Below, one piece after another: positions 1 through 54,227 of a stretch of DNA of 64,000 nucleotides. A model generated the notes under the pieces. It searched no databases, was not told the origin of the DNA, and saw only the letters and a list, made by a program, of their open reading frames with translations. Origin of the DNA: Verrucomicrobiota bacterium (lineage in GTDB: Bacteria; Verrucomicrobiota; Verrucomicrobiia; Limisphaerales; UBA11358); assembly GCA_049511835.1 (NCBI GenBank), contig JBEKXN010000002.1, positions 11,219 through 75,218 of the forward strand. Direction: 5' to 3'. Positions within the stretch are counted from its first letter, which is position 1, and each line of letters starts with the position of its first letter. The translations under genes were made by a program, and so were the position numbers.

Positions 1-1287
1 GTCGCGCGGAAGCTGGGCATGAAGGTCGAGGAATTCGCCGTCGGTTTCGGCCCGAAAATTCACAGTTGGAAGCGCGAGGGCATTGAATACTCGATCCGTT
101 GGATTCCGGCCGGCGGTTTTGTGAAGCTGCCCCAAATGGTTACCGCCGAGGCGCTCGAAGGCCAGTCGGTGGAAGAAGTTCCGCCGGCGCCGCCCGGGCA
201 CAAAATTCTCGTCGCCGCCGCCGGGCCGTTCATGAATGTGGTTTTTGCGTTCGCCATCGCCACGGTCATTTATTTTGTCGGCCTGCCGGTGCCGGTCAGT
301 CCGCCAATTATCGGCAATGTTGATCCTGATTCTCCGGAAGGCAGGTTGGGGATTCGTGAAGGTGACCGGGTGGTCATGGTGGATAAAAAACCCATAAAAT
401 CGTGGGAGGATGTCATGGAGTCCACGATGCTTGCCCGCACAAACTTGATTCCGGTGGTTATTGAACATGGCGGCGTCTCGAACACTTACAACCTGACCGC
501 CACGGTCAATGAAGTTATCGGCCTGAAAACTCTGAACCTCGACCCGCGCGAACATCCTGTGGTCGGCGCGGTGGAAGGTGGCATGCCGGCGGCGGCGGCG
601 GGCTTGCAGGCAGGTGACAAGATTCTATCTGTAAATGGAATTCCCGTGCCCGGCCAGAAACAGATGATTGAGTTGATTTCAAAATCAGCAGGCAAGCCGT
701 GTGAAATTATTTTCGACCGCAAAAATGAAAAGAAGAGCGTGACCATAACGCCGCAATACGATCCAGCTAATAAACGCGCCCGGATTGGCATCATCTTTAG
801 TGCGGGTGTCTACGAGGTGCAGTACCCGACACCTTGGGCGCAGGTCAAGGACGTTTGTGCGAAGATGGTCAGCCTTTTCAGCGCGTTGGCGCACTCCAAA
901 CAGACCGGTGTGGGCGCAAAAGATTTGGCCGGGCCGGTCGGCATCCTCGCCATGCTCGCCAGCGCGGTGAATAGTGACTATCGCTTGGCTTTGAGTTTCC
1001 TGGTGCTGCTCAACATCAACCTCGCGATCATCAATTTGCTGCCGATTCCCGTGCTCGACGGCGGACACATTTTAATGGCGATCATTGAAAAAATCCGCCG
1101 CCAGCCTTTGAGCATCAGATTTGTTGAATACACCACGACCGGCTTCGCGGTGTTGTTGATTGGCTTCATGCTTTACATCACGGTTTTTGGAGACATCAAA
1201 CGGTTTTCGCTCTATCGCGCGATGTTCAAAAACGACGTGCAAATCCAGCAATCGGCGCAGCCAGCGGCAACCGTGCCGGCAAAATAA
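1..1287 (+). CDS. rseP: RIP metalloprotease RseP (M50 site-2 protease), 5' end cut by window edge
   Basis: The frame is open from nt 1 (VARKLG precedes the ORF-track Met at 19). Contains FAVGFGPKI..IRWIPAGGFVKL, a PDZ-like middle region and the C-terminal NLLPIPVLDGGH motif. Confidence 0.9.
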   Translation, partial: VARKLGMKVEEFAVGFGPKIHSWKREGIEYSIRWIPAGGFVKLPQMVTAEALEGQSVEEVPPAPPGHKILVAAAGPFMNVVFAFAIATVIYFVGLPVPVSPPIIGNVDPDSPEGRLGIREGDRVVMVDKKPIKSWEDVMESTMLARTNLIPVVIEHGGVSNTYNLTATVNEVIGLKTLNLDPREHPVVGAVEGGMPAAAAGLQAGDKILSVNGIPVPGQKQMIELISKSAGKPCEIIFDRKNEKKSVTITPQYDPANKRARIGIIFSAGVYEVQYPTPWAQVKDVCAKMVSLFSALAHSKQTGVGAKDLAGPVGILAMLASAVNSDYRLALSFLVLLNINLAIINLLPIPVLDGGHILMAIIEKIRRQPLSIRFVEYTTTGFAVLLIGFMLYITVFGDIKRFSLYRAMFKNDVQIQQSAQPAATVPAK

Positions 1288-1294
1288 TTTCCCC

Positions 1295-3157
1295 ATGCGC
1301 TACTGCGAATCCCCGTTTTTCCATCACCGGCGAAAGACCCGCGAGGTCGTCATCGGCGATCCGGCACACGGCGGGGTCATCATCGGGGGCGACCATCCCG
1401 TCGTGAAGCAGTCCATGCTCACGTGCGACACGATGGACACCGCTGAATGCGTGAAGCAGACGCTTGAGCTCGTTACCGTCGGCTGCCAGCTCGTCCGCAT
1501 CACCGCGCCGACGGTGAAGGACGCGGCGAATTTACAGCACATCGTTGCCGAACTGCGCCAGCGCGGTTGCCTGGTGCCGATAGTTGCTGACATCCATTTC
1601 AAGCCCGAAGCCGCAATGGAAGCGGTGAAATGGGTTGAGGTGGTGCGCGTCAATCCCGGCAATTACGCCGACTCGAAGAAATTTGCGACCAAGGAATACA
1701 CGGACGAGCAATACACCGCCGAGTTGAAGCGCATTGAGGAGAAATTCACGCCGCTCGTGCTGGAATGCATCCGCCGGAAACGCTGTCTGCGCATCGGCAC
1801 CAACCACGGCTCATTAAGCGACCGGATCATGAACCGCTACGGCGACACGCCGCTGGGCATGATCGAGAGCGCGCTGGAATTCGCCCGCATCTGCCGCAAG
1901 CACAACTTCCACAACTTCAAGTTCTCGATGAAGGCGAGCAATCCCAAGGTGATGATTGAGTGCTACCGGCTGTTGGTCGCCCGGTTGGAACAGGAAGGAC
2001 CGGATTGGAATTATCCAATTCATCTTGGCGTCACTGAAGCGGGCGAGGGCGAGGACGGTCGCATCAAGAGCGCCATCGGCATCGGTTCGCTGTTGTGTGA
2101 CGGTTTGGGCGACACGATTCGTGTCTCGCTCACGGAGGATTCGCCGCGGGAAATCGAGGTCTGCACCGATTTGCTGGCGCAGATTCCCCAACTGTCGAAT
2201 TCCGAACTCCGAATTCCGAACTCCGAATTTCCATTTGACCCGTTCCACTTCGAACGTCGTGAAACGCTGGAAATCGAATTGAACGGGCAGGTCAAATGCG
2301 GCGGCGAACAACTCATCCGTGTCGTGGTCACGCGCGCGACGTGGGACAAGGTCGCGCCGAAGATTCGCCCGAAAGACGACGTGAAACCGGAGGCGGTTTA
2401 CGAAGACCTGAACATTGCCGAGATTGATCCCACTCAGGATTTTGAAATCAACCCCGACTCTGCGTCGGGGCTCGTCACCGTCAAAGACGGTGTCTCGCTG
2501 CCTGTGATTACCGCGTTTCGTCTGCTCGCCGCGAAGTTGAAACGCCTGGGCCGGAACAATCCAATTTTGCTAAAGGATTGCTTGGGCTTTGGTGGTAGCC
2601 GCGGATGTGAATCCGCGGACTCATTCTCCGCGGCAAATCCGCCGATTCACATCGGCGGCTACGAAGGTGTGCTTGAACCGAAGATTGCTTTGTTGCGGGC
2701 GTCGGTGGTCATCGGTTCACTGTTGGCGGACGGCATTGGCGATGCGATTTTGATTCGCGGCGAGGCCGGCGGTGGACAATCACTGCGGCTGGCTTACAAC
2801 CTGTTGCAGGCGGCGGGTTGCCGTTCGTTCAAGACCGATTATGTGGCGTGCCCAAGTTGCGGACGTACGCTGTTCAATCTTCAGACCGTCACGGCACGTA
2901 TCAAGGCGCGCACGGAGCATCTCAAGGGCGTGAAGATAGCCATCATGGGCTGCATCGTGAACGGCCCGGGCGAGATGGCCGACGCGGATTTCGGCTACGT
3001 GGGCGGCGCGCCCGGCAAGATCAATCTCTATGTCGGCAAGCAGGCCATTAAATTCAACATCCCCGAAGCCGAAGCCGTGGACCGGCTGGTGGACCTGATC
3101 AAAGAGCACGGCAAGTGGGTGGAGCCGGAGGCGAAGGCCGGGATAATCTTCAAATAA
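1295..3157 (+). CDS. ispG: 4-hydroxy-3-methylbut-2-enyl diphosphate synthase IspG, long form with insert domain
   Basis: Start moved to ATG 1295 because the ORF-track start at 1160 overlaps rseP. Shows an N-terminal TIM-barrel signature (VKQSMLTCDT, ADIHFKPEAA, NPGNY). The C-terminal Fe-S domain has CPSCGRT...GCIVNGPGE. Confidence 0.92.
   Translation: MRYCESPFFHHRRKTREVVIGDPAHGGVIIGGDHPVVKQSMLTCDTMDTAECVKQTLELVTVGCQLVRITAPTVKDAANLQHIVAELRQRGCLVPIVADIHFKPEAAMEAVKWVEVVRVNPGNYADSKKFATKEYTDEQYTAELKRIEEKFTPLVLECIRRKRCLRIGTNHGSLSDRIMNRYGDTPLGMIESALEFARICRKHNFHNFKFSMKASNPKVMIECYRLLVARLEQEGPDWNYPIHLGVTEAGEGEDGRIKSAIGIGSLLCDGLGDTIRVSLTEDSPREIEVCTDLLAQIPQLSNSELRIPNSEFPFDPFHFERRETLEIELNGQVKCGGEQLIRVVVTRATWDKVAPKIRPKDDVKPEAVYEDLNIAEIDPTQDFEINPDSASGLVTVKDGVSLPVITAFRLLAAKLKRLGRNNPILLKDCLGFGGSRGCESADSFSAANPPIHIGGYEGVLEPKIALLRASVVIGSLLADGIGDAILIRGEAGGGQSLRLAYNLLQAAGCRSFKTDYVACPSCGRTLFNLQTVTARIKARTEHLKGVKIAIMGCIVNGPGEMADADFGYVGGAPGKINLYVGKQAIKFNIPEAEAVDRLVDLIKEHGKWVEPEAKAGIIFK
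2195..2232. repeat. 14-bp tandem repeat GAATTCCGAACTCC (about 2.5 copies), in frame inside ispG
   Basis: Read directly: tcgaattccgaactccgaattccgaactccgaatttcc, translated as SNSELRIPNSEF. Related CCGAAYTCCGA strings occur at 16120, 18541, 25731 and 60306. Confidence 0.8.
2595..2661. repeat. Double-hairpin REP-like element with GTAGC...GCTAC ends, in frame inside ispG
   Basis: GTAGCCGCGGATGTGAATCCGCGGAC...AATCCGCCGATTCACATCGGCGGCTAC contains two perfect 8-bp-stem hairpins. A related string (cacatccgcggac...aatccgcc) lies at 34555-34590. Confidence 0.7.
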
Positions 3158-17051: not shown

Positions 17052-17111
17052 GGTAGGGCGGTGCTGCCGCGCCGCCCTGATATTTGGGCTGCGGAGCACC
17101 GCAGCCCTACC
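17052..17111. repeat. REP family D copy (GGTAGGGCGG ... CCCTACC)
   Basis: ggtagggcggtgctgccgcgccgccctga...gcggagcaccgcagccctacc. Shares ends with 17905, 23315 and 52374. Confidence 0.7.
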
Positions 17112-17904: not shown

Positions 17905-17972
17905 GGTAGGGCGGGCAGTCCCCTGCACGCCGCAATTACGTGGGACGGCGCGCACGGAGTGACGCGCCCTAC
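17905..17972. repeat. REP family D copy
   Basis: ggtagggcgggcagtcccctgcacgccgc...gacggcgcgcacggagtgacgcgccctacc. The right half is nearly identical to 23355-23385. Confidence 0.75.
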
Positions 17973-18023: not shown

Positions 18024-20846
18024 ATGGCCGACCGTTTGCCCATTTACGAAATCGAGCGCGACATTATCGCCCGGCTGAAAACCGACCGGCGGCTGATTTT
18101 GTCCGCGCCGACCGGCTCCGGCAAATCCACCCAGGTTCCGCAGATGCTGCTCCAGCACGGATTGCTGGGCGACGGGCAGGTTGTGATTCTCCAGCCGCGC
18201 CGGCTGGCCACGCGGTTGCTCGCATCGCGCGTGGCGCAGGAACTCGGCGTCCAGCTCGGCAACGAGGTTGGCTACCAAATCCGCTTCGAAAATGTCACAT
18301 CACAGCAGACGAAAATCCGTTTTGAGACCGAAGGCATCTTGTTGCGGCAGATGATTGACGACCCGAATTTGCGCGGGATTTCCGTTCTGATCTTCGACGA
18401 GTTTCACGAACGCCATCTTTACGGCGACATCACGCTGGCGCGCGCGCTCGATTTACAGGAGCAGCACCGACCTGACCTGAATCTCATCGTCATGTCTGCG
18501 ACGCTGGATGTGGAGTTGCTGGGGGATTATTTATCGGAGCGCCGAACTCCGATTCGGCGTGATGAAGTTGGAGTTCAAGCTTCAGCTTGTTCGGGCGGCA
18601 GGCTGAAGCCTGAACTCCAACACGCCGTGCCGGAGGCCGGCGCTCCAAAGTGTTCCATCTTGTCTGCTGAGGGCCGGGTATTTCCGGTTGATGTCAAATA
18701 CGCCGCGCAGCCAAGTTACACGGACAAACGGCCGGTTTGGGAGCAGGCGGCCGAGGCTTTCAGTCAGTACGTTGGCTCCGGTGGGGAAGGCGACGTGCTG
18801 GTGTTCATGCCGGGCGGCTATGAAATATCGCAGACTATTGAGGCCATCCGTCACACTTCGGAGTCGGAAGGTTTTATTTTGCTTCCGCTGCACGGCGAAC
18901 TTTCCCCCAAAGATCAGGACGCCGCGGTGGCGCGTTACGGCCAGCGCAAAGTGGTCGTTTCCACCAATGTCGCCGAGACCTCGCTGACCATTGACGGCAT
19001 CCGGCTGGTGATTGACAGCGGCCTGGCGCGCATTCCGCGTTACGATCCGTATCGCGGCATCAACACGCTGCTCATCGAGAAGATCAGCCAATCGTCAGCG
19101 GACCAAAGGACGGGTCGGGCGGGCCGCACCGCGCCGGGTGTTTGCATGCGGCTTTGGTCACGGGAGGAACATGGACATCGTGCGGTGCAGGAACTGCCGG
19201 AAATCAAGCGGCTTGACCTGGCCGAAGTGGTGCTCACGCTCAAAGCTGCCGAGGTCGAAGATTTGCGGAAATTCCGCTGGCTCGAACCACCCGATGAACA
19301 AAGCCTGGTCCACGCAGAGGAATTGTTGGTGGATTTGGGGGCGCTTTACAATGTGGCACAGGTGTCCTCACCTGTGAACGAAAACCAGATTGGCAGAATT
19401 TCAGAACACAGGCCGGAGGCCTGTGCCACACAAATCACGCCCATCAGCCCCAAGATCAGCGTGGCACAGGCGTCTCCGCCTGTGAACGAAAACCAGATTG
19501 GCAGAATTTCAGAACACAGGCCGGAGGCCTGTGCCACACAAATCACCCCCATCGGCCGCAAGATGCTCGCGTTTCCGCTGCATCCGCGTTATTCGCGCAT
19601 GTTGCTTGCCGCCCACGAGTATGGTTGCGTTCATCAAGCCTGCCTCGTTGCCGCGCTCACGCAGGGGCGCGACTTGCTGCTCCGTAATGTTGACCGCGAC
19701 ACGAACTCGTTCCGCGAGGATTTGCTCGGCGAGAAGGCGTCATCGGATTTCTGGATTCTCATGCGCGCGTGGGCTTATGCGGCGAAGAACCAGTTTCGTC
19801 TCGACGCCTGCCGCCGGCTTGGCATTCACGCCGTTACCGCGCGGCAGGTTGGGCCGCTGTTCGAACAGTTCCTTCGCATCGCCAAAGACGAAGGTCTTGA
19901 TGTCAAACCGCGCGAAGTGAAGGACGAGGCGTTGCAAAAGTGCATTCTCATCGGGTTCAGCGACCGGGTGGCGCGGCGGCTGGATCAAGGCACGCTGCGG
20001 TGTGAATTGGTCCACAATCGTCGCGGTGTGCTGGCGCGTGAAAGTGCAGTGCAACACAGCCCCTTGTTCGTTGCCGCCGAAGTCCGCGAAGTCGAGGGCC
20101 GGGAAGTGAACACCATTCTTTCCCTCGCCACCGCCATTGAGGTGGACTGGTTGCGCGAACTTTACCCCGAAGACATGGAATCCGACCTGCATGTCCAATT
20201 CGATTCAACGGCCAAGCGGGTGCAAGCTGCGGAGCTGGTGAAATTTCGCGGCCTGGCGCTGTCGGCCAAGCGCGTTGAACCGCCGCCGGCCGACAGGGCG
20301 GCACGATTGCTGGCCGATGAGATCATTGCCGGACGATTGCCGTTGCCGAATTGGGACCACAGCGTCGAGCAATGGCTGTTGCGGCTGCGCCTGCTTTGCC
20401 AGCATTGTCCCGAACTCCAGCTTCCACCCATCACCGAAGACGACCGCAGGCACATCATCGGACAGCTTTGCCACGGCGCGGTGAGTTACAAGGACATCAA
20501 GGAACGCGAAGTGAAACCGGTCGTGATGTCGTGGCTGTCCGCGGCGCAACGCGAATTGATGGACAAGCACGCGCCGGAGCGGTTGACGCTGCCGAACGGC
20601 CGGACGCCGAAGGTGGCTTACGAGACAGCTGGCCCGCCGCATATTTCGTTGCGCATCCAGGAGCTTTACGACGTGACCCAGACGCCGAAGATTGCGCTGG
20701 GCCGCGTACCGGTGCTGGTTCACATTTTGACCCCGGGCATGAAGCCGATACAAATTACACAGGACCTGGCCAGTTTCTGGCGCGAGCACTATCCGCGCAT
20801 CAAATCCGAGCTGCAGCGGAAATATCCGAAACATCTGTGGCGATGA
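18024..20846 (+). CDS. hrpB: ATP-dependent RNA helicase HrpB (DEAH-box family)
   Basis: Start moved to ATG 18024. Helicase motifs APTGSGKST, IFDEFHERH, MSATLD, TNVAETSLTI and QRTGRAGR, plus an HrpB-type C-terminal domain. Confidence 0.92.
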   Translation: MADRLPIYEIERDIIARLKTDRRLILSAPTGSGKSTQVPQMLLQHGLLGDGQVVILQPRRLATRLLASRVAQELGVQLGNEVGYQIRFENVTSQQTKIRFETEGILLRQMIDDPNLRGISVLIFDEFHERHLYGDITLARALDLQEQHRPDLNLIVMSATLDVELLGDYLSERRTPIRRDEVGVQASACSGGRLKPELQHAVPEAGAPKCSILSAEGRVFPVDVKYAAQPSYTDKRPVWEQAAEAFSQYVGSGGEGDVLVFMPGGYEISQTIEAIRHTSESEGFILLPLHGELSPKDQDAAVARYGQRKVVVSTNVAETSLTIDGIRLVIDSGLARIPRYDPYRGINTLLIEKISQSSADQRTGRAGRTAPGVCMRLWSREEHGHRAVQELPEIKRLDLAEVVLTLKAAEVEDLRKFRWLEPPDEQSLVHAEELLVDLGALYNVAQVSSPVNENQIGRISEHRPEACATQITPISPKISVAQASPPVNENQIGRISEHRPEACATQITPIGRKMLAFPLHPRYSRMLLAAHEYGCVHQACLVAALTQGRDLLLRNVDRDTNSFREDLLGEKASSDFWILMRAWAYAAKNQFRLDACRRLGIHAVTARQVGPLFEQFLRIAKDEGLDVKPREVKDEALQKCILIGFSDRVARRLDQGTLRCELVHNRRGVLARESAVQHSPLFVAAEVREVEGREVNTILSLATAIEVDWLRELYPEDMESDLHVQFDSTAKRVQAAELVKFRGLALSAKRVEPPPADRAARLLADEIIAGRLPLPNWDHSVEQWLLRLRLLCQHCPELQLPPITEDDRRHIIGQLCHGAVSYKDIKEREVKPVVMSWLSAAQRELMDKHAPERLTLPNGRTPKVAYETAGPPHISLRIQELYDVTQTPKIALGRVPVLVHILTPGMKPIQITQDLASFWREHYPRIKSELQRKYPKHLWR
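18541..18621. repeat. Hairpin repeat family F (GCCGAACTCCGATTCGGC plus a long 20-bp-stem hairpin), in frame inside hrpB
   Basis: gccgaactccgattcggc followed by gttggagttcaagcttcagc...ggctgaagcctgaactccaac. The GCCGAACTCCGATTCGGC core recurs at 25731 and 60306. Confidence 0.75.
19353..19568. repeat. REP family C, two tandem 108-bp copies, in frame inside hrpB
   Basis: Each copy reads GTGGCACAGG-hairpin...CACAGGCCGGAGGCCTGTGCCAC. The copies start at 19353 and 19461. They are translated as two 36-aa units VAQ(V/A)[26 protein letters not shown].... Confidence 0.9.
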
Positions 20847-25569: not shown

Positions 25570-26002
25570 ACGTCTTTGGTCCTAAATGTTGCGTTGACTG
25601 GCACAAATGGCCAGTTACCGGCGCTGACACTAATTGCGGGCGCGTTGTTCGGCAATAAAAATTGAATCGCGTTCCAATGCTATCAACCGAACAATCTGAC
25701 TCCGACTTCCATCCAGACTAATCCGAATGGAACTCCGATTCGGCATCACGAGTATTTGGCGTTCCCAAACCAGAATTTTGCCCGGGGGGATGGCATAACT
25801 ATTGCGGCTATCGGAGGCGTGAAAGTGACTTCCCGGAAGATTTGGAAAGAAGGGAAATCCAGTGGGGAAACAAAAATTGGCAGCTCGAAGCTGCCCACGC
25901 TTTGGATCGAATGTCACAATCCGAGACATTCATACGCGAGCGGCTTGAAGGTGCCAGGCAGGATATAAAAGGATTGCGTGGAAGTTTAAAAAATGTAGTC
26001 GC

Positions 26003-29002
26003 ATGAAAGCGACCCTTATCAAAGAGAAAAAATCGGTTGAGCCGTCGCCCCAGGTGCAAACCGCGCCGGGCAATTTGGAAAACCGGATCGGGGCCGAACC
26101 AACCTGCGAGCGTGACTTGTTGCGGACGCTGATTGACGGCCTGCCCGATAACATTTTCATCAAAGACCGGCAAAGCCGGTTTCTGATCAGCAATCTGGCG
26201 CACGTACGGACGTTGGGCGTGACCCGTCTCGACGAGGTGATTGGTAAAACCGACCTCGATATTTTTCCGCCGGAATTAGCCAATCGATATTATGGGGATG
26301 AACAGGCGCTGATGGAATCCGGCCAATCGCTGAATCGGGAAGAAATGGTGGTGAATCCGCGAACCGGCGAGAAGCGCTGGCTGCAAACCACGAAAGTGCC
26401 GCTGAGAGACAAGGAGGGGAAGGTCGTCGGGCTGATGGGCATCAACCGGGACATCACGGATCGGAAGCGGGCGGAAGAGGCGCTGGCCAGTGCGCATCGG
26501 CTGTTGGAAGCGATGCTGGACAACATTCCTGACCGGATTTATTTTAAAGACACCCAATGCCGGTTCGTTCAATGCAACCGGGCGGTTGCCAGGCGCGTGG
26601 GCGTGGAAGATCCCAAACAGGTCATCGGTAAAACGGACTTTGATTTTTACCCTCCGGAAAAGGCCGAGGAGTTCCGGAAGGATGATCAAAGGATTATGCA
26701 GAGCGGCGAGCCGTTGCTCAACAAGACCGAGCAGGTCATCAAGCCCAACGGCGAAATGACTTGGTCGTCCATTGCCAAAGTGCCGCTGCGAGACAGGGAA
26801 GGGAAAATCGTGGGTTTGGTGGGCATCAGCCGGGACATTACGGATCAGAAACGAGCGGAGGAGGTCCTGCGCCAATCGCGCGACGAACTGGAGAAACGGG
26901 TCGCCGAACGCACCGCTGAACTTTCACACGAACGCCTGCTGCTGCGAACGCTCATTGACAACCTGCCGGACGGCATCTACGCCAAGGACACCGCCGGCCG
27001 GAAGACGCTGGCCAATCCGGCTGACCTGAAAAACCTCCGCTGCAAAACCGAAGCCGAGGCGATCGGCAAAAGCGATTTCGATTTTTATCCGCACGACATT
27101 GCCGAAAAATTCCAAGCCGACGACCAGAGTGTAATTCAGGGCCAGCCGGTCATCAACCGGGAGGAGTATTTCTTCGACGGCGAGGGCCAGAAGCGCTGGT
27201 TGTTGACCAGCAAGCTGCCGTTGCACGATCAAAACGGAACAATCGTCGGTCTGGTGGGCATCGGCCGGGACATCACGGAACGTAAGCGGGCGGAAGAGAT
27301 GTTGGTCAGGGAACGCCTCCTGCTGCGGACGCTGATAGACAACCTGCCGGACGGCATTTACGCCAAGGACACCGCCGGCCGCAAGACCCTGGCCAATCCG
27401 GCCGACTTGAAGGTTATGGGGTGCAAGACGGAAGCCGAGGCCGTCGGCAAGAGCGATTTCGATTTCTTTCCCAAGGACATTGCCGAAAAATTTTGGGCCG
27501 ACGATCAAAAGGTGATTGAGGGCCAACCGGTCATCAACCGGGAGGAGTATTTCTTCAACGAAAAAGGCCGGAAATGTTGGTTGTTGACCAGCAAGCTGCC
27601 GTTGCGCGATCAGGACGAAAAGATCTTCGGCCTGGTGGGCATTGGCCGGGACATCACCGACCGGAAACTGACCGAAGCCAAGCTGGCTCATGAGCGCGAC
27701 CTGCTGAACACCCTCATGGACAACACGCCGGACCTTTTTTACTTCAAGGACCTTCAGTCGCGCTTCGTGCGGGTGAGCAAATCCACGCTGAAGTATTCAT
27801 TTGAATCGGCCCTGAAACGCCACCGCTCCAGTCACCAATCCCCTGACGCCGGGGAACTGCCACCGCACCTGGCCAGCCTGGAAGAGTTCAAAAAGTATCT
27901 GATTGGCAAAACGGATTTCGACGTCCTCGACGAGGAACGCGCCCGGTCGACATACAACGACGAGCAGGAGATCATCCGTACCGGCCAGCCCATCATCGGC
28001 AAACTCAGACGCACGACCATGCCCGACGGCACGGTTGGCTGGCGGATCACCAACAAGATGCCCTGGCGTGACAAGGACGGGAAGATCATCGGTACCTTCG
28101 GCACTGGCCGGGACATCACAGCCATCAAGGAAGCTGAAGCCAAGCTCGAGCAAAGCCACAAACAGCTTCTGGAAGTCTCGCGCCAGGCCGGGATGGCTGA
28201 AGTGGCCACCAGTGTCCTTCACAATGTCGGCAATGTGCTGAATAGCGTCAATGTCGCGTCCTCTTGTGTTGCCGACAGCCTCAGGAACTCCAAGGCAGCC
28301 AACCTGTCCAAAATTGTCGCTTTGCTGCGTGAGCACGAAGCGGACTTGGGCCATTTCATCGCCAATGATCCCAAAGGCAAACAGTTGCCCGGGTATCTGG
28401 CGCAACTGGCCGGGTATCTGGCTGGCGAACAAACCGACGCTTTGGATAAACTTGCCCGGCTGCAAAAGAACATCGAGCACATCCGGGAAATTGTTGCCAT
28501 GCAACAAAACTACGCGAAGGCTTCAGGTGTCCTTGAGTCGTTGCCCATTGTTGATCTGGTGGAAGACGCCGTTCGAATGAATGTCGGCTCACTGGAGCGT
28601 CATAATGTAAAGATGCTGCGCGAATATTCCGAAACGCCCCTGGTTTTGGTGGACAAGCACAAAGTGCTGCAAATTTTGGTGAACCTGATCAGCAATGCCA
28701 AACATGCCTGCAAAGATTCTGAAAAGCCGGACAAACAAATCACCCTGCGCGTGGCGAATGAAAAGGAACGGATCAAAATATCAGTCATTGATAACGGCGT
28801 CGGCATTCCCGCGGAAAATATGACCCGGATTTTCAATTACGGATTCACAACCAGAAAAGACGGCCACGGCTTCGGCCTTCACAATGGCGCCCTGGCCGCA
28901 AAAGAAATGGGCGGAAGCCTTGCCGCTTTCAGCGAAGGACCGGGGCGGGGAGCCACCTTTACGCTGGAACTGCCAATCCAGGGACAAAAGGCAAACGTAT
29001 GA
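26003..29002 (+). CDS. Multi-PAS sensor histidine kinase (cytoplasmic, about 6 PAS units)
   Basis: Repeated PAS blocks each ending GI(N/S/G)RDIT(D/E)(R/Q)K. DHp H-box [15 protein letters not shown] (His codon at 28220-28222). HATPase motifs DNGVGI and GHGFGL. Confidence 0.9.
26930..27691. repeat. Internal tandem duplication of one PAS unit (2 x 381 bp)
   Basis: [34 protein letters not shown]...GIGRDIT occurs twice, starting at 26930 and 27311. Long stretches are nucleotide-identical. Confidence 0.85.
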
Positions 29003-30846: not shown

Positions 30847-31003
30847 CCAGCGAATGTGGCAACCCATAGTTTGGCTTCCCCAGCCCGCCACAAGTCAGTA
30901 TTCCGATGAGGAGATGTTGGAAGTCGTTTCCCATTGAACCGGTAAAAATTTCCATTCGCAAATTGGCCGAACGCGGCTGGATTTCCAGCGCGTTCGCTGA
31001 GGA

Positions 31004-31067
31004 ATGAAAAAATACTGGCACGTCATCGGCATCGGGATCCAGAACAACCTGACGTATCGCGTCAATT
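31004..31067 (+). pseudogene. Orphan 5' fragment of the ABC-2 permease gene (direct repeat of 33687-33750)
   Basis: 64 bp with one mismatch to the start of the permease gene at 33687 (atgaaaaaatactggcacgtcatcggcatcggga...gtcaatt). Weaker similarity extends about 55 bp upstream of both copies. Confidence 0.85.
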
Positions 31068-33458: not shown

Positions 33459-33686
33459 CTGATTATCCCGGGTCTGAAACGCCATCATGATAGCCGGGAC
33501 ATAGTCATAAGGCAAGCTTTTTTCGCCGATGCATCGTTTTACTTTCTCCTTCGCACTCCAGCCAATCACGACTCCTAACCACCAGCTTCAGCCTGCGCCT
33601 CCTCGCTTTTGAAAGTCGCGGCGGCAATTTACCCGCCTGTTTTCATTCGCAATTTGCCGTTGCGTGGATAAATTTTGCCTGCGCGA

Positions 33687-34493
33687 ATGAAAAAATACTG
33701 GCACGTCATCGGCATCGGGATTCAGAACAACCTGACGTATCGCGTCAATTACCTGACGCGAACGCTGTTCAGCTTCATCCCGCTGTTCGCCATGCTGTCA
33801 CTCTGGCGCACGATTTACGCGGGGAAAGAGCAGGGGAGCGCCCTCGGCGGTTACACCCAGGCGCAGATGATTTTTTATTACCTCATGGTCGCCGTGGTGG
33901 ACGTGCTGACGGCGGTGAACGAGGATGACTGGCAGATCGCGGCGGACATCCGGGAAGGCAACATCAGCCAGTTCCTGCTCAAGCCGATTGATTATCTGCG
34001 GTACCGGCTGTGCCTGTTTTTATCCGGGCGCATCACGTTCATCGCCATGGCGGGCGTGCCGCTGGCCGTGTTCATCTTCTGCTTTCGCGAATATTTTGTC
34101 GGCCCGGCAAACGCAACGGCGCTGCCCGCTTTTGTGATTTCGCTGGTGCTGACGGCGCTGCTGCAATTTTTCATTTCCTACACGATGGCCATGCTGGCGT
34201 TCTGGCTGCTGGAAATTTCCACGTTCATCTTCATCCTGTTCGCGCTCGAATATCTCGCCAGCGGCCATTTGTTCCCGCTTGACCTGTTGCCGCCGGTCAT
34301 CGGGCACGCGCTCTTTTTCACGCCGTTTCCGTCCATGCTTTACGTTCCCATCGCCATTTACATGGGCAAAATAGCCGGGACCGCCATCTGGTTCGGTTTG
34401 CTGGTGCAATTGCTGTGGCTGCTGCTGGCGTATGTCGCCGCCCGGTTTATGTGGCGGCGCGGCGTGAAAAAATACTCGGCTTTTGGAGGATGA
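33687..34493 (+). CDS. ABC-2 type transporter permease (ABC2_membrane_6-like)
   Basis: Start at ATG 33687. Six predicted TM helices and an N-terminal LTYRVNYL motif. Paralogous in layout to 37084-37905. Confidence 0.65.
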   Translation: MKKYWHVIGIGIQNNLTYRVNYLTRTLFSFIPLFAMLSLWRTIYAGKEQGSALGGYTQAQMIFYYLMVAVVDVLTAVNEDDWQIAADIREGNISQFLLKPIDYLRYRLCLFLSGRITFIAMAGVPLAVFIFCFREYFVGPANATALPAFVISLVLTALLQFFISYTMAMLAFWLLEISTFIFILFALEYLASGHLFPLDLLPPVIGHALFFTPFPSMLYVPIAIYMGKIAGTAIWFGLLVQLLWLLLAYVAARFMWRRGVKKYSAFGG

Positions 34494-42387: not shown

Positions 42388-42413
42388 TGTAGCGGCGCTC
42401 TGTGAGCGCCGGA
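42388..42413. repeat. REP family B half-copy (TGTAGCGGCGCTCTGTGAGCGCCGG)
   Basis: The identical string occurs at 50689-50714. Confidence 0.8.
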
Positions 42414-42423
42414 AGATGGCAAA

Positions 42424-42478
42424 TGTGGCACAGACCTCTGGTCTGTGTTTTGGCACACAGGCCGGAGGCCTGTGCCAC
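42424..42478. repeat. REP family C copy
   Basis: tgtggcacagacctctggtctgtg...cacaggccggaggcctgtgccac. Confidence 0.85.
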
Positions 42479-42614: not shown

Positions 42615-43016
42615 TTAAAGTCGGGGGTAGTGTGATGCGTCTCTTGCGGACTTGCACGGGATGCGATTTGGCCGGGACAACTTGGGAGACTTTTTGCTGC
42701 CGGCGGCGATTTGAATCGCACGATGCGCCCAAGCCACCAACTCTTCCCGGTTTTCCAGCACGTCCGGCGGCACTTCGTGATAACCCATCGTCATCACGCG
42801 CCCCTTCATCTCGTAGGTGAACGGTCCCATGCCGCGCGCAATATAGTCAGCCTGCGACAGCGTGTCCGTTTTGAAAAACAGCCGGCCCTCGTCCAGAATT
42901 GCGAAGAAGGACTCACCCTGATACAACCCATGCGCGCCAAACATTGCCCGGGCACGCACGTCCGGCAACGCGCTCAACTGGTCGAGCACAAATTCTTTGA
43001 ACGAGTCATCCGCCAT
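42615..43016 (-). CDS. TfoX N-terminal domain protein
   Basis: Start moved to ATG 43016. MADDSFKEFVLDQLSALPDVRARAMFGAHGLYQGESFFAILDEGRLFFKTD is typical of the TfoX_N fold. Confidence 0.8.
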   Translation of the reverse strand: MADDSFKEFVLDQLSALPDVRARAMFGAHGLYQGESFFAILDEGRLFFKTDTLSQADYIARGMGPFTYEMKGRVMTMGYHEVPPDVLENREELVAWAHRAIQIAAGSKKSPKLSRPNRIPCKSARDASHYPRL

Positions 43017-43338
43017 TGCTGCGAAAGATTTAACGCAAAAATCGCGGCCTGTCACGCCGCAGCCGAAAGCGAAAGAGAAAGGTGCAAAGTCAAAAAGCAA
43101 TAGCGGCAACTCTGGGAACATTGCCATTGCGGCGGGTGGAGTTGTTTGTTGGTTGCCTTAAAGCCGGTCGGGATATCGGCCTTTGCTCTGAAGCTTCGGC
43201 GCGACCGACTGGCTTCTCCGGAGGTGTGCGCCATGGTTCAAAAATATGTGTTACCTAAAGGAATAGAGGAAGTTGCGCAAATTGCCAATAATTTTCCTTG
43301 TCTTTTTCCGGAACATGTCCCATACTTAGACAGTTGTT

Positions 43339-43911: not shown

Positions 43912-44385
43912 ATGGCGTCAAGTCTTGCCACAAAAAAAATTCTGGTTGTTGATGACAATCAGATAATCCTGAATGTCTTGTCGTCGGCCCTCAAATCCAG
44001 AGGCTACGAGGTGTTTACGGCCGTTGACGGTCCCGCAGCCTTCACGGTCGTGCTTCAGGAACAGCCGGACCTCATCCTGCTCGATATTTTCTTTCCGCCC
44101 GACATCTTCCAGAGCGGTAACACCTGGGATGGGTTTCTGATTATGCACTGGCTCCAACGCATGGGCGGACCCCGGGCCAATCGCACCCCCGTAATCGTCA
44201 TGTCCGGGGCTGAACCGGTGGAAATCAAGGATCGTTGTCTGGCCGCCGGCGCAGTGGACTACTTTCAAAAACCGGTCAAGATTCCCGAACTGCTGGACGC
44301 CATTCAGCAACTCTCCCGCCCGAGGGTGAGCGAAGTGCCGCTTGAAGTGGCGGCCATGTCAAATTCCGAGCAACTGCGCCTCTAG
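43912..44385 (+). CDS. Single-domain response regulator (CheY-like receiver), copy 2
   Basis: Start moved to ATG 43912 (MASSLATKKILVVDDNQIILNVL...). Paralog of 43339-43812. Confidence 0.85.
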   Translation: MASSLATKKILVVDDNQIILNVLSSALKSRGYEVFTAVDGPAAFTVVLQEQPDLILLDIFFPPDIFQSGNTWDGFLIMHWLQRMGGPRANRTPVIVMSGAEPVEIKDRCLAAGAVDYFQKPVKIPELLDAIQQLSRPRVSEVPLEVAAMSNSEQLRL

Positions 44386-44392
44386 CCAAACC

Positions 44393-44446
44393 TCTGGCTG
44401 CAACGCACTCAACTGGTCGAGCACAAATTCTTTGAAGGAGTCGTCA
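44393..44446 (-). pseudogene. tfoX 5'-end fragment (start codon lost)
   Basis: ctggctgcaacgcactcaactggtcgagcacaaattctttgaaggagtcgtc matches 42962-43010 of the intact tfoX-like gene. Confidence 0.7.
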
Positions 44447-50257: not shown

Positions 50258-50351
50258 AGGCAAATTGGATTCATCCGATGCTGCCAAACAAACCACCGAA
50301 ATCAAACCGGCTCAAGCTTAAACCGATTCAGCTCCCGGCTTTAAAGACAAC

Positions 50352-50407
50352 TGTGGCACAGACCTCTGGTCTGTGTTGTAGGTTCACAGGCCGGAGGCCT
50401 GTGCCAC
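50352..50407. repeat. REP family C copy
   Basis: tgtggcacagacctctggtctgtg...cacaggccggaggcctgtgccac. Confidence 0.85.
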
Positions 50408-50462
50408 GAAAAGTCACGTTCTAGCATCTTTGCGCCAAGGCGTAAAAAAAATGAATTACCGC

Positions 50463-50521
50463 GACTTCGGCAACGCGTTCAGCGGGTCGGGGACAATTTC
50501 TTTGAAGGAGTTGTCGGGCAT
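50463..50521 (-). pseudogene. tfoX 5'-end relic (encodes only MPDNSFKEIVPDPLNALPKSR then stop)
   Basis: Matches the first ~55 bp of the tfoX-like gene. ATG is retained at 50519-50521 and a stop falls at 50456-50458. Confidence 0.7.
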
Positions 50522-50714: not shown

Positions 50715-50724
50715 AGTTAGCAAC

Positions 50725-50780
50725 TGTGGCACAGACCTCCGGTCTGTGTCATAGATTCACAGGCTGGAGGCCTGTGCCAC
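50725..50780. repeat. REP family C copy
   Basis: tgtggcacagacctccggtctgtg...cacaggctggaggcctgtgccac. Confidence 0.85.
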
Positions 50781-50835
50781 GAGAAGTCACGTCCTGACAT
50801 CTTTGTGCCTTGGTGTTGAAATGAATCAGCGCTAC

Positions 50836-50886
50836 TCCGGCAACGCGCTCAACGGGTCAGGGACAATTTCTTTGAAGGAGTCGTCG
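50836..50886 (-). pseudogene. tfoX 5'-end relic
   Basis: ccggcaacgcgctcaacgggtcagggacaatttctttgaaggagtcgtc. Confidence 0.65.
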
Positions 50887-50939
50887 CCGTAAATTTGTTG
50901 TAGTGTCGAGCCACAGGCTCAACGCTACACCGGAGAACA

Positions 50940-51440
50940 CTACACCCGATCTATCACATGAATCTCGCCTTGATACGGCCAATCATCCGGTCGCTCTACC
51001 AACTTCGCTCGCACCGGATTGTGCCAGACGTAATCCCATTTTTGCGTGTAACTTTCATCGCGCCGCAACAGATGGTCGAAAAAGCCCGGCTGCCAGAAGC
51101 TTTTCAACTTCGCGCCTGGAATCGTCGCTGGCTCGTAGCCCAGCGCTGACAACGCCTTGCCCAGACATTGTTTCAAGCCGCTTTCCCACCGCCGCAGTGT
51201 TATGTCGCGCCCGATGCGCACAAAGACATGGATGTGATCCGGCATCAAGACATAGCGTCCCGTCGCCACGTTGAATTTCAATCCGCGCTCAGCGTAGCTA
51301 CAGAACGCGGCATGCACGGAATCATTCGCGAGCAAGGGACGTTTCAACAGCGTGTTGAACGTGACAAAATAAAGCGGCGCATCGAAATGCTGGAAAAGGA
51401 TCGGCAAACGCGGCGGAGTCCCTTTGAGCTTGCGTTCCAT
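50940..51440 (-). CDS. REP-associated tyrosine transposase (RAYT; IS200/IS605 Y1 HUH family)
   Basis: Start moved to ATG 51440, giving 166 aa. The ORF-track N-terminal extension is just translated REPs. HUH motif PDHIHVFV. Catalytic Tyr region YVWHNPVRAKLV. Confidence 0.88.
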   Translation of the reverse strand: MERKLKGTPPRLPILFQHFDAPLYFVTFNTLLKRPLLANDSVHAAFCSYAERGLKFNVATGRYVLMPDHIHVFVRIGRDITLRRWESGLKQCLGKALSALGYEPATIPGAKLKSFWQPGFFDHLLRRDESYTQKWDYVWHNPVRAKLVERPDDWPYQGEIHVIDRV

Positions 51441-51484: not shown

Positions 51485-51593
51485 TGTAGCGTCGAGGCTG
51501 CGCCTCGATTTTACTGTAGCGTCGAGCCTGTGGCTCGATTGGATTGCGTCGAGCCTGCGGCTCGTCCGGTTGAGCCGCAGGCTCAACGCTACA
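51485..51593. repeat. REP family A cluster (3-4 units)
   Basis: tgtagcgtcgaggctgcgcctcga..., ctgtagcgtcgagcctgtggctcga..., tgcgtcgagcctgcggctcg..., ttgagccgcaggctcaacgctaca. Confidence 0.88.

Positions 51594-52310: not shown

Positions 52311-54227
<1,917 letters not shown>

Follow-up and report, generated by a model that had tools for sequence, protein, structure and literature searches.

In-frame insertion and tandem duplication of a REP doublet within a loop of the helicase HrpB in an uncultured Verrucomicrobiota bacterium

Repetitive extragenic palindromic (REP) sequences are defined by the tetranucleotide GT(A/G)G at the 5′ end and, behind it, a short palindrome that forms a G+C-rich stem-loop (20-40 nt; PMC3686654, PMC3733652). 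Intragenic GTAG REPs were described by Di Nocera et al. (2013), who found the highest number in the verrucomicrobium Opitutus terrae, where the tag of family GTAG-20 is mutated to GTGG (PMC3733652). In-frame GTAG/GTGG REP dimers encode 20-30 aa and clusters of them 43-82 aa; their targets include genes for HrpA, a DEAD/DEAH helicase, uvrA, and recBCD, as well as tRNA synthetases in other species, and two Xanthomonas species carry different REPs at about the same recB site (PMC3733652). In-frame REP insertion is therefore already known in Verrucomicrobia, helicases included, and the subject of this analysis, an inverted pair of REPs inserted and tandemly duplicated in frame in the helicase gene hrpB of an uncultured Verrucomicrobiota bacterium from soil or wetland, is of a known kind. 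The window, that is, the whole stretch of DNA analyzed, comprises 64,000 nucleotides of contig JBEKXN010000002.1 (assembly GCA_049511835.1, positions 11,219 to 75,218), and positions are counted from its first letter. Our data indicated that the in-frame doublet and its duplication are very probably a tolerated passenger in HrpB.

The hrpB element, designated REP family C, shares with the O. terrae families GTAG-17 to -20 the GT(A/G)G tag, the G+C-rich hairpin, the arrangement, for the most part, as inverted dimers, and the in-frame position in housekeeping genes; the O. terrae peptides HGRDARAT, GTGVPPV, and WHGRPAR represent three frames of a REP very similar to the one in hrpB (compare VAQ here). 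It differs in its lineage (an uncultured Limisphaerales-type metagenome-assembled genome [MAG]) and in its stem sequence, and in that the dimer is here tandemly duplicated together with host flank, with a four-fold array in a sister lineage. In addition, dozens of families turn over at the same two loops across ~180 orthologs, a phenomenon only touched on for Xanthomonas recB (PMC3733652). The combination of inverted REPs, a long hairpin, many copies, and a nearby REP-flanked gene for a REP-associated tyrosine transposase (RAYT) is shared with the systems of RAYTs and REP doublets forming hairpins (REPINs) (Bertels & Rainey 2011, PMC3116915; Nunvar et al. 2013, PMC3686654). However, the family-C spacer is not conserved between copies, the RAYT gene of the window is flanked by another REP family, and REPINs are described as almost exclusively intergenic (PMC3116915, PMC3686654), whereas the hrpB doublet is intragenic. 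Rickettsia palindromic elements are likewise selfish palindromes tolerated in frame in many unrelated essential genes, with RPE-1-decorated proteins reported to be expressed (Ogata et al. 2000, as summarized in PMC3184786 and PMC3733652); RPE-1-type elements are longer (~105-146 bp) and of different sequence families, their hosts are alphaproteobacteria with a reduced, intracellular way of life, and a link to RAYTs is not described. The parallel with them that was drawn in the original prediction, a note made from the letters of the window, is apt as an analogy only, with size, host, and tag all differing, and the O. terrae REP dimers provide a closer precedent (PMC3733652).

As far as literature searches show, the new aspects are a tandem amplification that is in frame and takes in host sequence, the extent to which families turn over at fixed loops in one clade, the conserved arms set against a drifting spacer inside an open reading frame (ORF), and a shared junction relic. 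Bacterial interspersed mosaic elements of E. coli are intergenic tandem amplifications of REP units, presumably formed by slippage or unequal exchange, whereas the units of the hrpB arrays, 108 and 84 bp, are held to lengths divisible by three, and the arrays would be translated.

The REP array in hrpB

The array and its host gene consist of the following parts.

18024..20846, plus strand: hrpB gene, 940 aa from ATG (TIGR01970 and Pfam matches; identical protein P0001 on record)
19353..19460, plus strand: tandem unit 1, with REP doublet at 19353-19429 and decayed native-flank duplicate at 19430-19460 (QITPISPKIS)
19461..19568, plus strand: tandem unit 2, with REP doublet at 19461-19537 and functional native flank at 19538-19568 (QITPIGRKML)
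19353..19376, plus strand: left REP of unit 1, GTGG tag and hairpin CACAGGTG-TCCT-CACCTGTG
19377..19406, plus strand: 30-nt spacer of unit 1 (NENQIGRISE), recurring at 19485-19514 in unit 2
19407..19429, minus strand: right REP of unit 1, reading GTGGCACAGGCCTCCGGCCTGTG on this strand; the intergenic copies at 42456-42478 and 50385-50407 have the identical sequence
19461..19484, plus strand: left REP of unit 2, stem GGCG/CGCC
19515..19537, minus strand: right REP of unit 2, REP pattern match
hrpB insert region: predicted tryptic peptide ISVAQASPPVNENQIGR

Tandem Repeats Finder returned one array (19353-19564; period 108, 2.0 copies, 93% matches, zero indels), and direct comparison of unit 1 (19353-19460) with unit 2 (19461-19568) revealed 98 of 108 identical bases, in agreement with the two near-identical 108-bp units and the open frame of the original prediction, whose translation was also reproduced. 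Each unit is composed of a 77-nt pair of inverted GTGG-tagged REP hairpins and 31 bp of native hrpB sequence, in the order GTGGCACAGG..CCTGTG (24 nt), 30-nt spacer, CACAGGCCGGAGGCCTGTGCCAC (23 nt), and 31-nt tail (ACAAATCAC..AAGAT..). The left REP (24 nt) reads GTGG followed by CACAGG(T/C)G-loop-C(A/G)CCTGTG, and the right REP (23 nt), in the opposite orientation, reads CACAGGCC-GGA-GGCCTGTG followed by CCAC; a T-A pair in the left-REP stem of unit 1 is a C-G pair in unit 2, which constitutes a compensated change. The tail encodes QITPI(S/G)(P/R)K(I/M)(S/L), and its version in unit 2, QITPIGRKML, matches the ITPIGRKMLAF segment conserved in all orthologs. The reading frame remained open across both units, which account for 2 × 36 residues within the 940-codon gene. 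The RNA fold of a 231-nt stretch reached -91.6 kcal/mol compared with -63.8 ± 4.5 for shuffles (z = -6.2), and no terminator-like or promoter-like site was found in the insert.

The product of 18024-20846 matched the HrpB equivalog model TIGR01970 over its full length (598 bits; cutoff, 546) and contained the Pfam domains DEAD, Helicase_C, HA2_C, and HrpB_C (PF08482; E = 5e-38). Its best PDB matches were E. coli HrpB 6EUD and 6HEG, and the helicase motifs GSGKST, DEFHER, SAT, and QRTGRAGR were all intact in the translation. The identical 940-aa database protein P0001 (NCBI MGA2278926.1) belongs to a Verrucomicrobiota MAG (contig JGI 3300038428 Ga0427950_000125). The mechanical ORF opens at GTG 17940 and reads 968 aa, which is probably 28 codons too long because one GTAGGGCG-type REP falls inside the GTG-extended ORF. 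REPs of this type are located at 17947-17972 (minus strand) and 17053-17110, shortly 5′ of the hrpB ATG. Scans with Rfam (gathering thresholds) and for tRNAs yielded no matches across the window.

Insertion and duplication in comparison with HrpB relatives

To place the array among its relatives, 120 close HrpB homologs (76-100% identity) were compared at the protein level and hrpB genes from 160 loci in GTDB genomes and metagenomes at the DNA level. In insert-free relatives, DLGAL and ITPIGRKM are separated by a turn of only 4-5 residues (P0112, DLGALDHAGRIAPIGHKM; also P0109, P0117, and ~20 loci), and P0112 is collinear with E. coli HrpB 6EUD at this position, termed site 2, with a single one-residue gap (LGALE-GERLSAQGQKM). 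The insert is therefore derived, and the alignment showed that site 2 ancestrally held a turn of this length, as E. coli HrpB does. The right junction of the array (..GTGCCACACAA|ATCAC) recurs in ten relatives with a single copy (L003, L101, L165-L170, and others), and the two-copy state is confined to the cluster of P0001. Recovery of the two-copy protein from three assemblies (P0001, P0241, and P0242) with 0-2 amino acid differences argues against an assembly artefact. Since QITPISPKIS, which follows copy 1, is QITPIGRKML in decayed form, the duplicated unit comprised both the element and host sequence. With units arranged head to tail at a period of 108 and a single-copy state in relatives, the comparison showed the 216-bp stretch to be a tandem duplication of the REP doublet and 31 bp of the host gene, in frame in an HrpB loop. 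An order of events in which insertion came first and tandem duplication later is supported, because relatives carry one copy with the same junctions and insert-free relatives match E. coli. Lineage specificity of the insert, this order of events, and the inclusion of native flank had all been proposed in the original prediction, and the ortholog alignment upheld each of them.

A sister lineage at 92.5% identity (L085, L086, and L128, from three metagenomes) carries four tandem in-frame copies with a period of 84 bp, in which the unit is the element plus ACACACC.

L085 6495-6875, L086 7809-8189, and L128 11321-11701: 4 × 84-bp arrays at hrpB site 2, with CACAC microhomology at unit boundaries

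Given this different period, the element has been amplified in tandem at least two times, and the comparison showed the 4 × 84-bp array, with its different unit, to have been built independently of the 2 × 108-bp array. The duplications may have arisen via slippage or unequal exchange between short direct repeats beside hairpin-forming DNA, a route that the CACAC microhomology fits for the 84-bp array.

The DNA-based loci are free of gene-calling bias and provided 47 and 83 distinct filled peptides at site 1 (a second insert position in hrpB, described below) and site 2, respectively. All 149 site-1 intervals and 156 of the 157 site-2 intervals were multiples of three and stop-free. Such regularity is unexpected for skipped inserts or dead genes and is indirect evidence of translation. 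A stop codon was present in just one site-2 interval (L081 11212-11359), where the gene may be a pseudogene or the sequence may be in error. None of the six frames of the REP arms contains a stop, and the arms hence do not dictate which frame is used in hrpB.

Constraint was compared among 13 orthologous in-gene family-C copies. Their stems were 98.6% paired, with one pair fully compensated (CG in 7, UA in 6) and most other stem changes being G-U on the sense strand, and mean pairwise divergence was 3.9% for the right REP, 10.9% for the left REP, and 23.8% for the spacer. Variable spacer sites were spread equally over the codon positions (7/7/7); the insert peptide is therefore free of amino-acid-level constraint. 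The arms are maintained at the nucleic-acid level, through structure selection, transposase recognition, or conversion from other copies.

Within the protein, the doublet lies in a short turn after the conserved LGAL helix of the winged-helix (HA2) domain. In helicases of the DEAH/RHA type, it is established that one helix of the winged-helix domain terminates at LGAL and that the D-x-x-G turn leads into the strand carrying (I/L)T. The Pfam winged-helix model HA2_N matched only residues after the insert in this HrpB, and it was detected in relatives with a short or empty site 2 as well as in a few with moderate inserts.

REP families in the window and their turnover at HrpB loops

Family-C REPs conform to the definition by GT(A/G)G tag and palindrome, with GTGG followed by CACAGGCC-TCC-GGCCTGTG, an 8-bp stem, a 3-4-nt loop, and a length of 23-24 nt. 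The pattern GTGGCACAG-N9/10-CTGTG occurred 12 times at 5 loci in the window, whereas 100 shuffles yielded no occurrence. The inverted pair is REPIN-like: in relatives with a single copy, its 15-16-nt outer arms are complementary to each other over 77-79 nt. Its other copies and the RAYT gene are as follows.

42425..42478, no strand assigned: intergenic family-C doublet, 8-nt spacer, adjoining the GTAGCGGCGCTC REP at 42389-42411
50353..50407, no strand assigned: intergenic family-C doublet, 9-nt spacer, REP pattern match
50726..50780, no strand assigned: intergenic family-C doublet, 9-nt spacer, with the RAYT gene's 3′ end ~160 bp away
53767..53840, minus strand: family-C doublet in frame in glnS, with orientation and frame relative to translation as in hrpB
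50940..51440, minus strand: RAYT gene, 166 aa (NCBIfam NF047646, 89.6 bits, cutoff 80; weak Pfam Y1_Tnp match)

According to the original prediction, the same element recurs at 42424, 50352, and 50725 and in glnS; these copies do exist, as listed above, but only the REP arms are common to them, the spacers measuring 30 nt in hrpB, 28 nt in glnS, and 8-9 nt in the intergenic copies. Similarity between the hrpB and glnS spacers was not significant (39% of shuffles score equally well), the 30-nt spacer was found only in hrpB of the window and relatives, and for family C the doublet including its spacer is not demonstrably the repeated unit, as it is for REPINs. The accompanying view that the insert is a mobile repeat and not ancestral protein sequence agrees with the membership of the arms in a dispersed family and with the RAYT gene within the window. 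On either side of this gene, at 50905-50928 and 51486-51592, lie GTAGCGTCGAGCC-type REPs in a REPtron-like layout, and family-C doublets lie ~160 and 535 bp from it. Delivery of REPs would be by a RAYT-type tyrosine transposase, one of which is encoded 31 kb from the hrpB insert. The mechanical ORF of the RAYT gene extends upstream into the flanking REPs. A ~170-bp module containing a family-C doublet and a 68-nt segment is repeated 373 bp apart (50348-50516 and 50721-50886), and the 68-nt segment also ends two other genes (42944-43011 and 44379-44446), one of which, 42615-43127 (minus strand), encodes a TfoX_N protein.

In-frame doublets were also present in other proteins. The glnS gene (52311-54227, minus strand) carries the family-C doublet listed above, and the corresponding GlnRS loop across 120 relatives held many REP families, with no empty state seen. 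In ispG/gcpE (1160-3154, plus strand), a GTAGCCGCGGATGTGAATCCGCGG doublet (GSRGCESADSFSAANPPIHIGGY) lies in frame at 2595-2662 within the GcpE protein, and in the relative L005, a 1-Mb MAG contig, a GTAGGACAGGC doublet at 2525-2609 is in frame in a RecJ-like protein (DHH motif). The spacer of the GTAGGACAGGC family in L005 is conserved between the hrpB and recJ copies, unlike that of family C. Occurring as it does in the unrelated GlnRS, IspG, and RecJ, in-frame insertion is a property of the repeats and not of HrpB. A further GTAG hairpin is found at 52375-52408, near the glnS 3′ end. Descent in situ between the family-C and GTAGGACAGGC alleles of site 2 was considered and dropped, the spacer similarity not being significant (p = 0.04-0.4). 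A native-loop origin of the hrpB spacer (NENQI, compare DKNNAI) was likewise considered but is not claimed.

The hrpB gene of the window carries a second, composite REP insert, which the original prediction overlooked, as it did the recurrent use of both loops as REP sites throughout the clade.

18536..18646, plus strand: second in-frame hrpB insert, site 1 (SERRTPIRRDEVGVQASACSGGRLKPELQHAVPEAGAP), just after motif III at the RecA1/RecA2 junction

It consists of outer inverted arms (GGAGCGCCG..CGGCG at 18536-18559 and 18623-18646) and a nested palindrome (GGAGTTCAAGCTTCAGC..GCTGAAGCCTGAACTCC at 18570-18618), with a DNA fold of -46.1 kcal/mol (z = -9.2); in relatives, site 1 contains the outer element without the nested one, contains other families, or is empty (YLKPC). 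A census of 181 non-redundant HrpBs (≥72% identity) revealed that site 1 is filled in 156 of them (~86%) by ~45 sequence families, and site 2 (the position of 19353-19568) in 156-160 by ~57 families, nearly all of which are GTAG...CTAC doublets with differing stem sequence at the DNA level. On a tree of the remaining protein (181 tips), the family states require at least 109 and 110 changes at sites 1 and 2, compared with 140 and 145 for shuffled labels and possible minima of 45 and 58; correlation between family pattern and core tree is almost nil, and HrpB proteins only 1.7% apart can differ in insert family. In the crown clade, both sites are filled in every member, with ~8 families per site in almost all combinations, a pattern consistent with recombination that shuffles alleles, with in-situ replacement, or with both. 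The relic (C/T)TACAA|ATC at the right junction is common to most site-2 alleles, and in L099 and L102 a doublet of a different family is followed by a retained L006-type REP tail, which suggests that one original site-2 position was occupied successively. Relative to other genomes, insert 14-mers were ~20-fold commoner in the flanks of their own genome (1.43 vs 0.073 per 10 kb); each genome's insert thus belongs to its own repeat repertoire. At a third HrpB site (~20055; residue 706 of the 968-aa ORF), which is empty in the window, 16 of 181 relatives carry inserts, and these are RYLDSSSSRRESALTSGGKNEPAYAGCY-type REP peptides (e.g., L098, P0029, and P0070).

Collectively, these comparisons indicate that REP-type selfish repeats can persist long inside essential bacterial genes, adding tens of residues to a conserved helicase, and that in hrpB they expand as tandem arrays and are swapped for other families at the same codon positions. 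For annotators, this explains length variation and "low-complexity" loops in Verrucomicrobiota proteins, and such loops are without phylogenetic signal. For the study of REPs and RAYTs, orthologous in-frame copies are a natural experiment in which the frame fixes the alignment and arm conservation can be separated from spacer drift, and the many alleles at one site could reveal whether REPs prefer inserting at existing REPs. A bolder and rather speculative proposal is that the loops of HrpB, GlnRS, IspG, and RecJ are persistent "REP nests" with in-situ succession. A doublet fixed in a permissive loop would attract further REPs and be overwritten in situ by an active family, via REP-targeted insertion and deletion or gene conversion, while the arms would be under nucleic-acid-level constraint inside the ORF and the encoded peptide would drift. 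The leads for this proposal are the junction relic, the L099/L102 tails, the nested site-1 elements, the 109-110 state changes, and the far stronger conservation of arms than of spacer. If true, REP nests would give housekeeping enzymes strain-specific hypervariable loops that stem from a transposase-repeat system and not from point mutation.

Explanations of the hrpB array and other repeats of the window

Under the explanation that we favor, in which the array is a tolerated passenger, two permissive HrpB loops would collect REP doublets of many families, with selection filtering only for open frames, and the insert would be translated as a disordered, tolerated loop of 2 × 36 residues without function for the helicase. 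Several points weigh against it. What speaks for translation of the hrpB insert is frame conservation, from which we infer it. The hrpB spacer, sought outside hrpB in ~2 Mb of related DNA, was not found, and because this spacer is peculiar to the one locus, the complete 77-nt unit is not demonstrably mobile; in addition, the RAYT gene is directly flanked by a GTAG family other than family C and thus encodes no more than a candidate for the family-C transposase. AlphaFold2 modeling of the full protein with 69 close homologs produced a poor model (mean predicted local distance difference test [pLDDT] score, 49; predicted template modeling [pTM] score, 0.31), in which the insert, placed between a helix and two short strands, was the least confident part; because the model is poor, we infer surface exposure of the insert only tentatively. 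Finally, the 10 differences between the units are clustered, with 4 in the left REP and 6 in the flank, so that all 10 fall within 55 nt and the central 53 nt have none (Fisher p = 0.0013), and the difference-free stretch includes the fastest-evolving part among orthologs. Such an uneven distribution is not predicted by a single simple duplication followed by uniform drift.

Instead of slippage within one chromosome, the two-copy state may have come from unequal homologous exchange between diverged loop alleles, or may have been partially homogenized later by gene conversion, which we regard as possible but doubtful. Either would explain the clustering. Copy 1 has a left REP (GGTGTCCTCACC) that matches the L128-type allele exactly and copy 2 (GGCG..CGCC) is near the L003/L101 type, and the near-complete set of family combinations at the two sites in the crown clade is what recombination predicts; however, no parental allele pair gives both copies exactly, the flank of copy 1 has private changes, and a compensated change within the lineage or conversion from other genomic REPs would look alike. 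It is improbable that the inserts are useful, either as a hypervariable strain-specific loop (for partner or RNA binding or inhibitor escape) or as mRNA hairpins regulating hrpB. Although both loops are filled throughout the crown clade, ~45 and 57 families have undergone 109-110 inferred state changes on the 181-tip tree, and the arms are conserved inside the ORF with most one-sided stem changes being G-U on the sense strand, the same behavior is seen in the unrelated GlnRS, IspG, and RecJ, the 7/7/7 spacer variation points to no selection at the amino acid level, the insert has no terminator-like or promoter-like site, and insert-free relatives are common. Stable hairpins in the mRNA might suggest that the insert is untranslated, with hrpB being a pseudogene or the element being skipped by the ribosome or by RNA processing, but this is very unlikely with an ORF intact over 940 codons, all helicase motifs present, and, with a single exception among >300, site intervals of relatives that are in frame and stop-free, which skipping would not need. 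Least credible of all is that the duplication is a metagenome assembly artefact or that the segment is an ancestral variable linker, palindromic by chance. The source is a short-read metagenome contig and repeats are prone to mis-assembly, but the units differ at 10 positions, 216 bp is short enough to be spanned by reads or read pairs, and the same 940-aa protein with 0-2 substitutions was present in three assemblies; moreover, the arms occur 12 times in the window against 0 in shuffles, and insert-free orthologs exist.

Two further sets of repeats were observed in the window. The large ORF at 25949-28999 (plus strand) contains five tandem repeats of 381-462 bp with 62-82% identity, which resemble PAS-type sensor modules, and the neighboring syntenic gene in L003 has PAS and HATPase domains. 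A 66-nt stretch containing an ATG (GAATGAAAAAATACTGGCACG..) is repeated at 31002-31067 and 33685-33750, 2.7 kb apart, with 98% identity.

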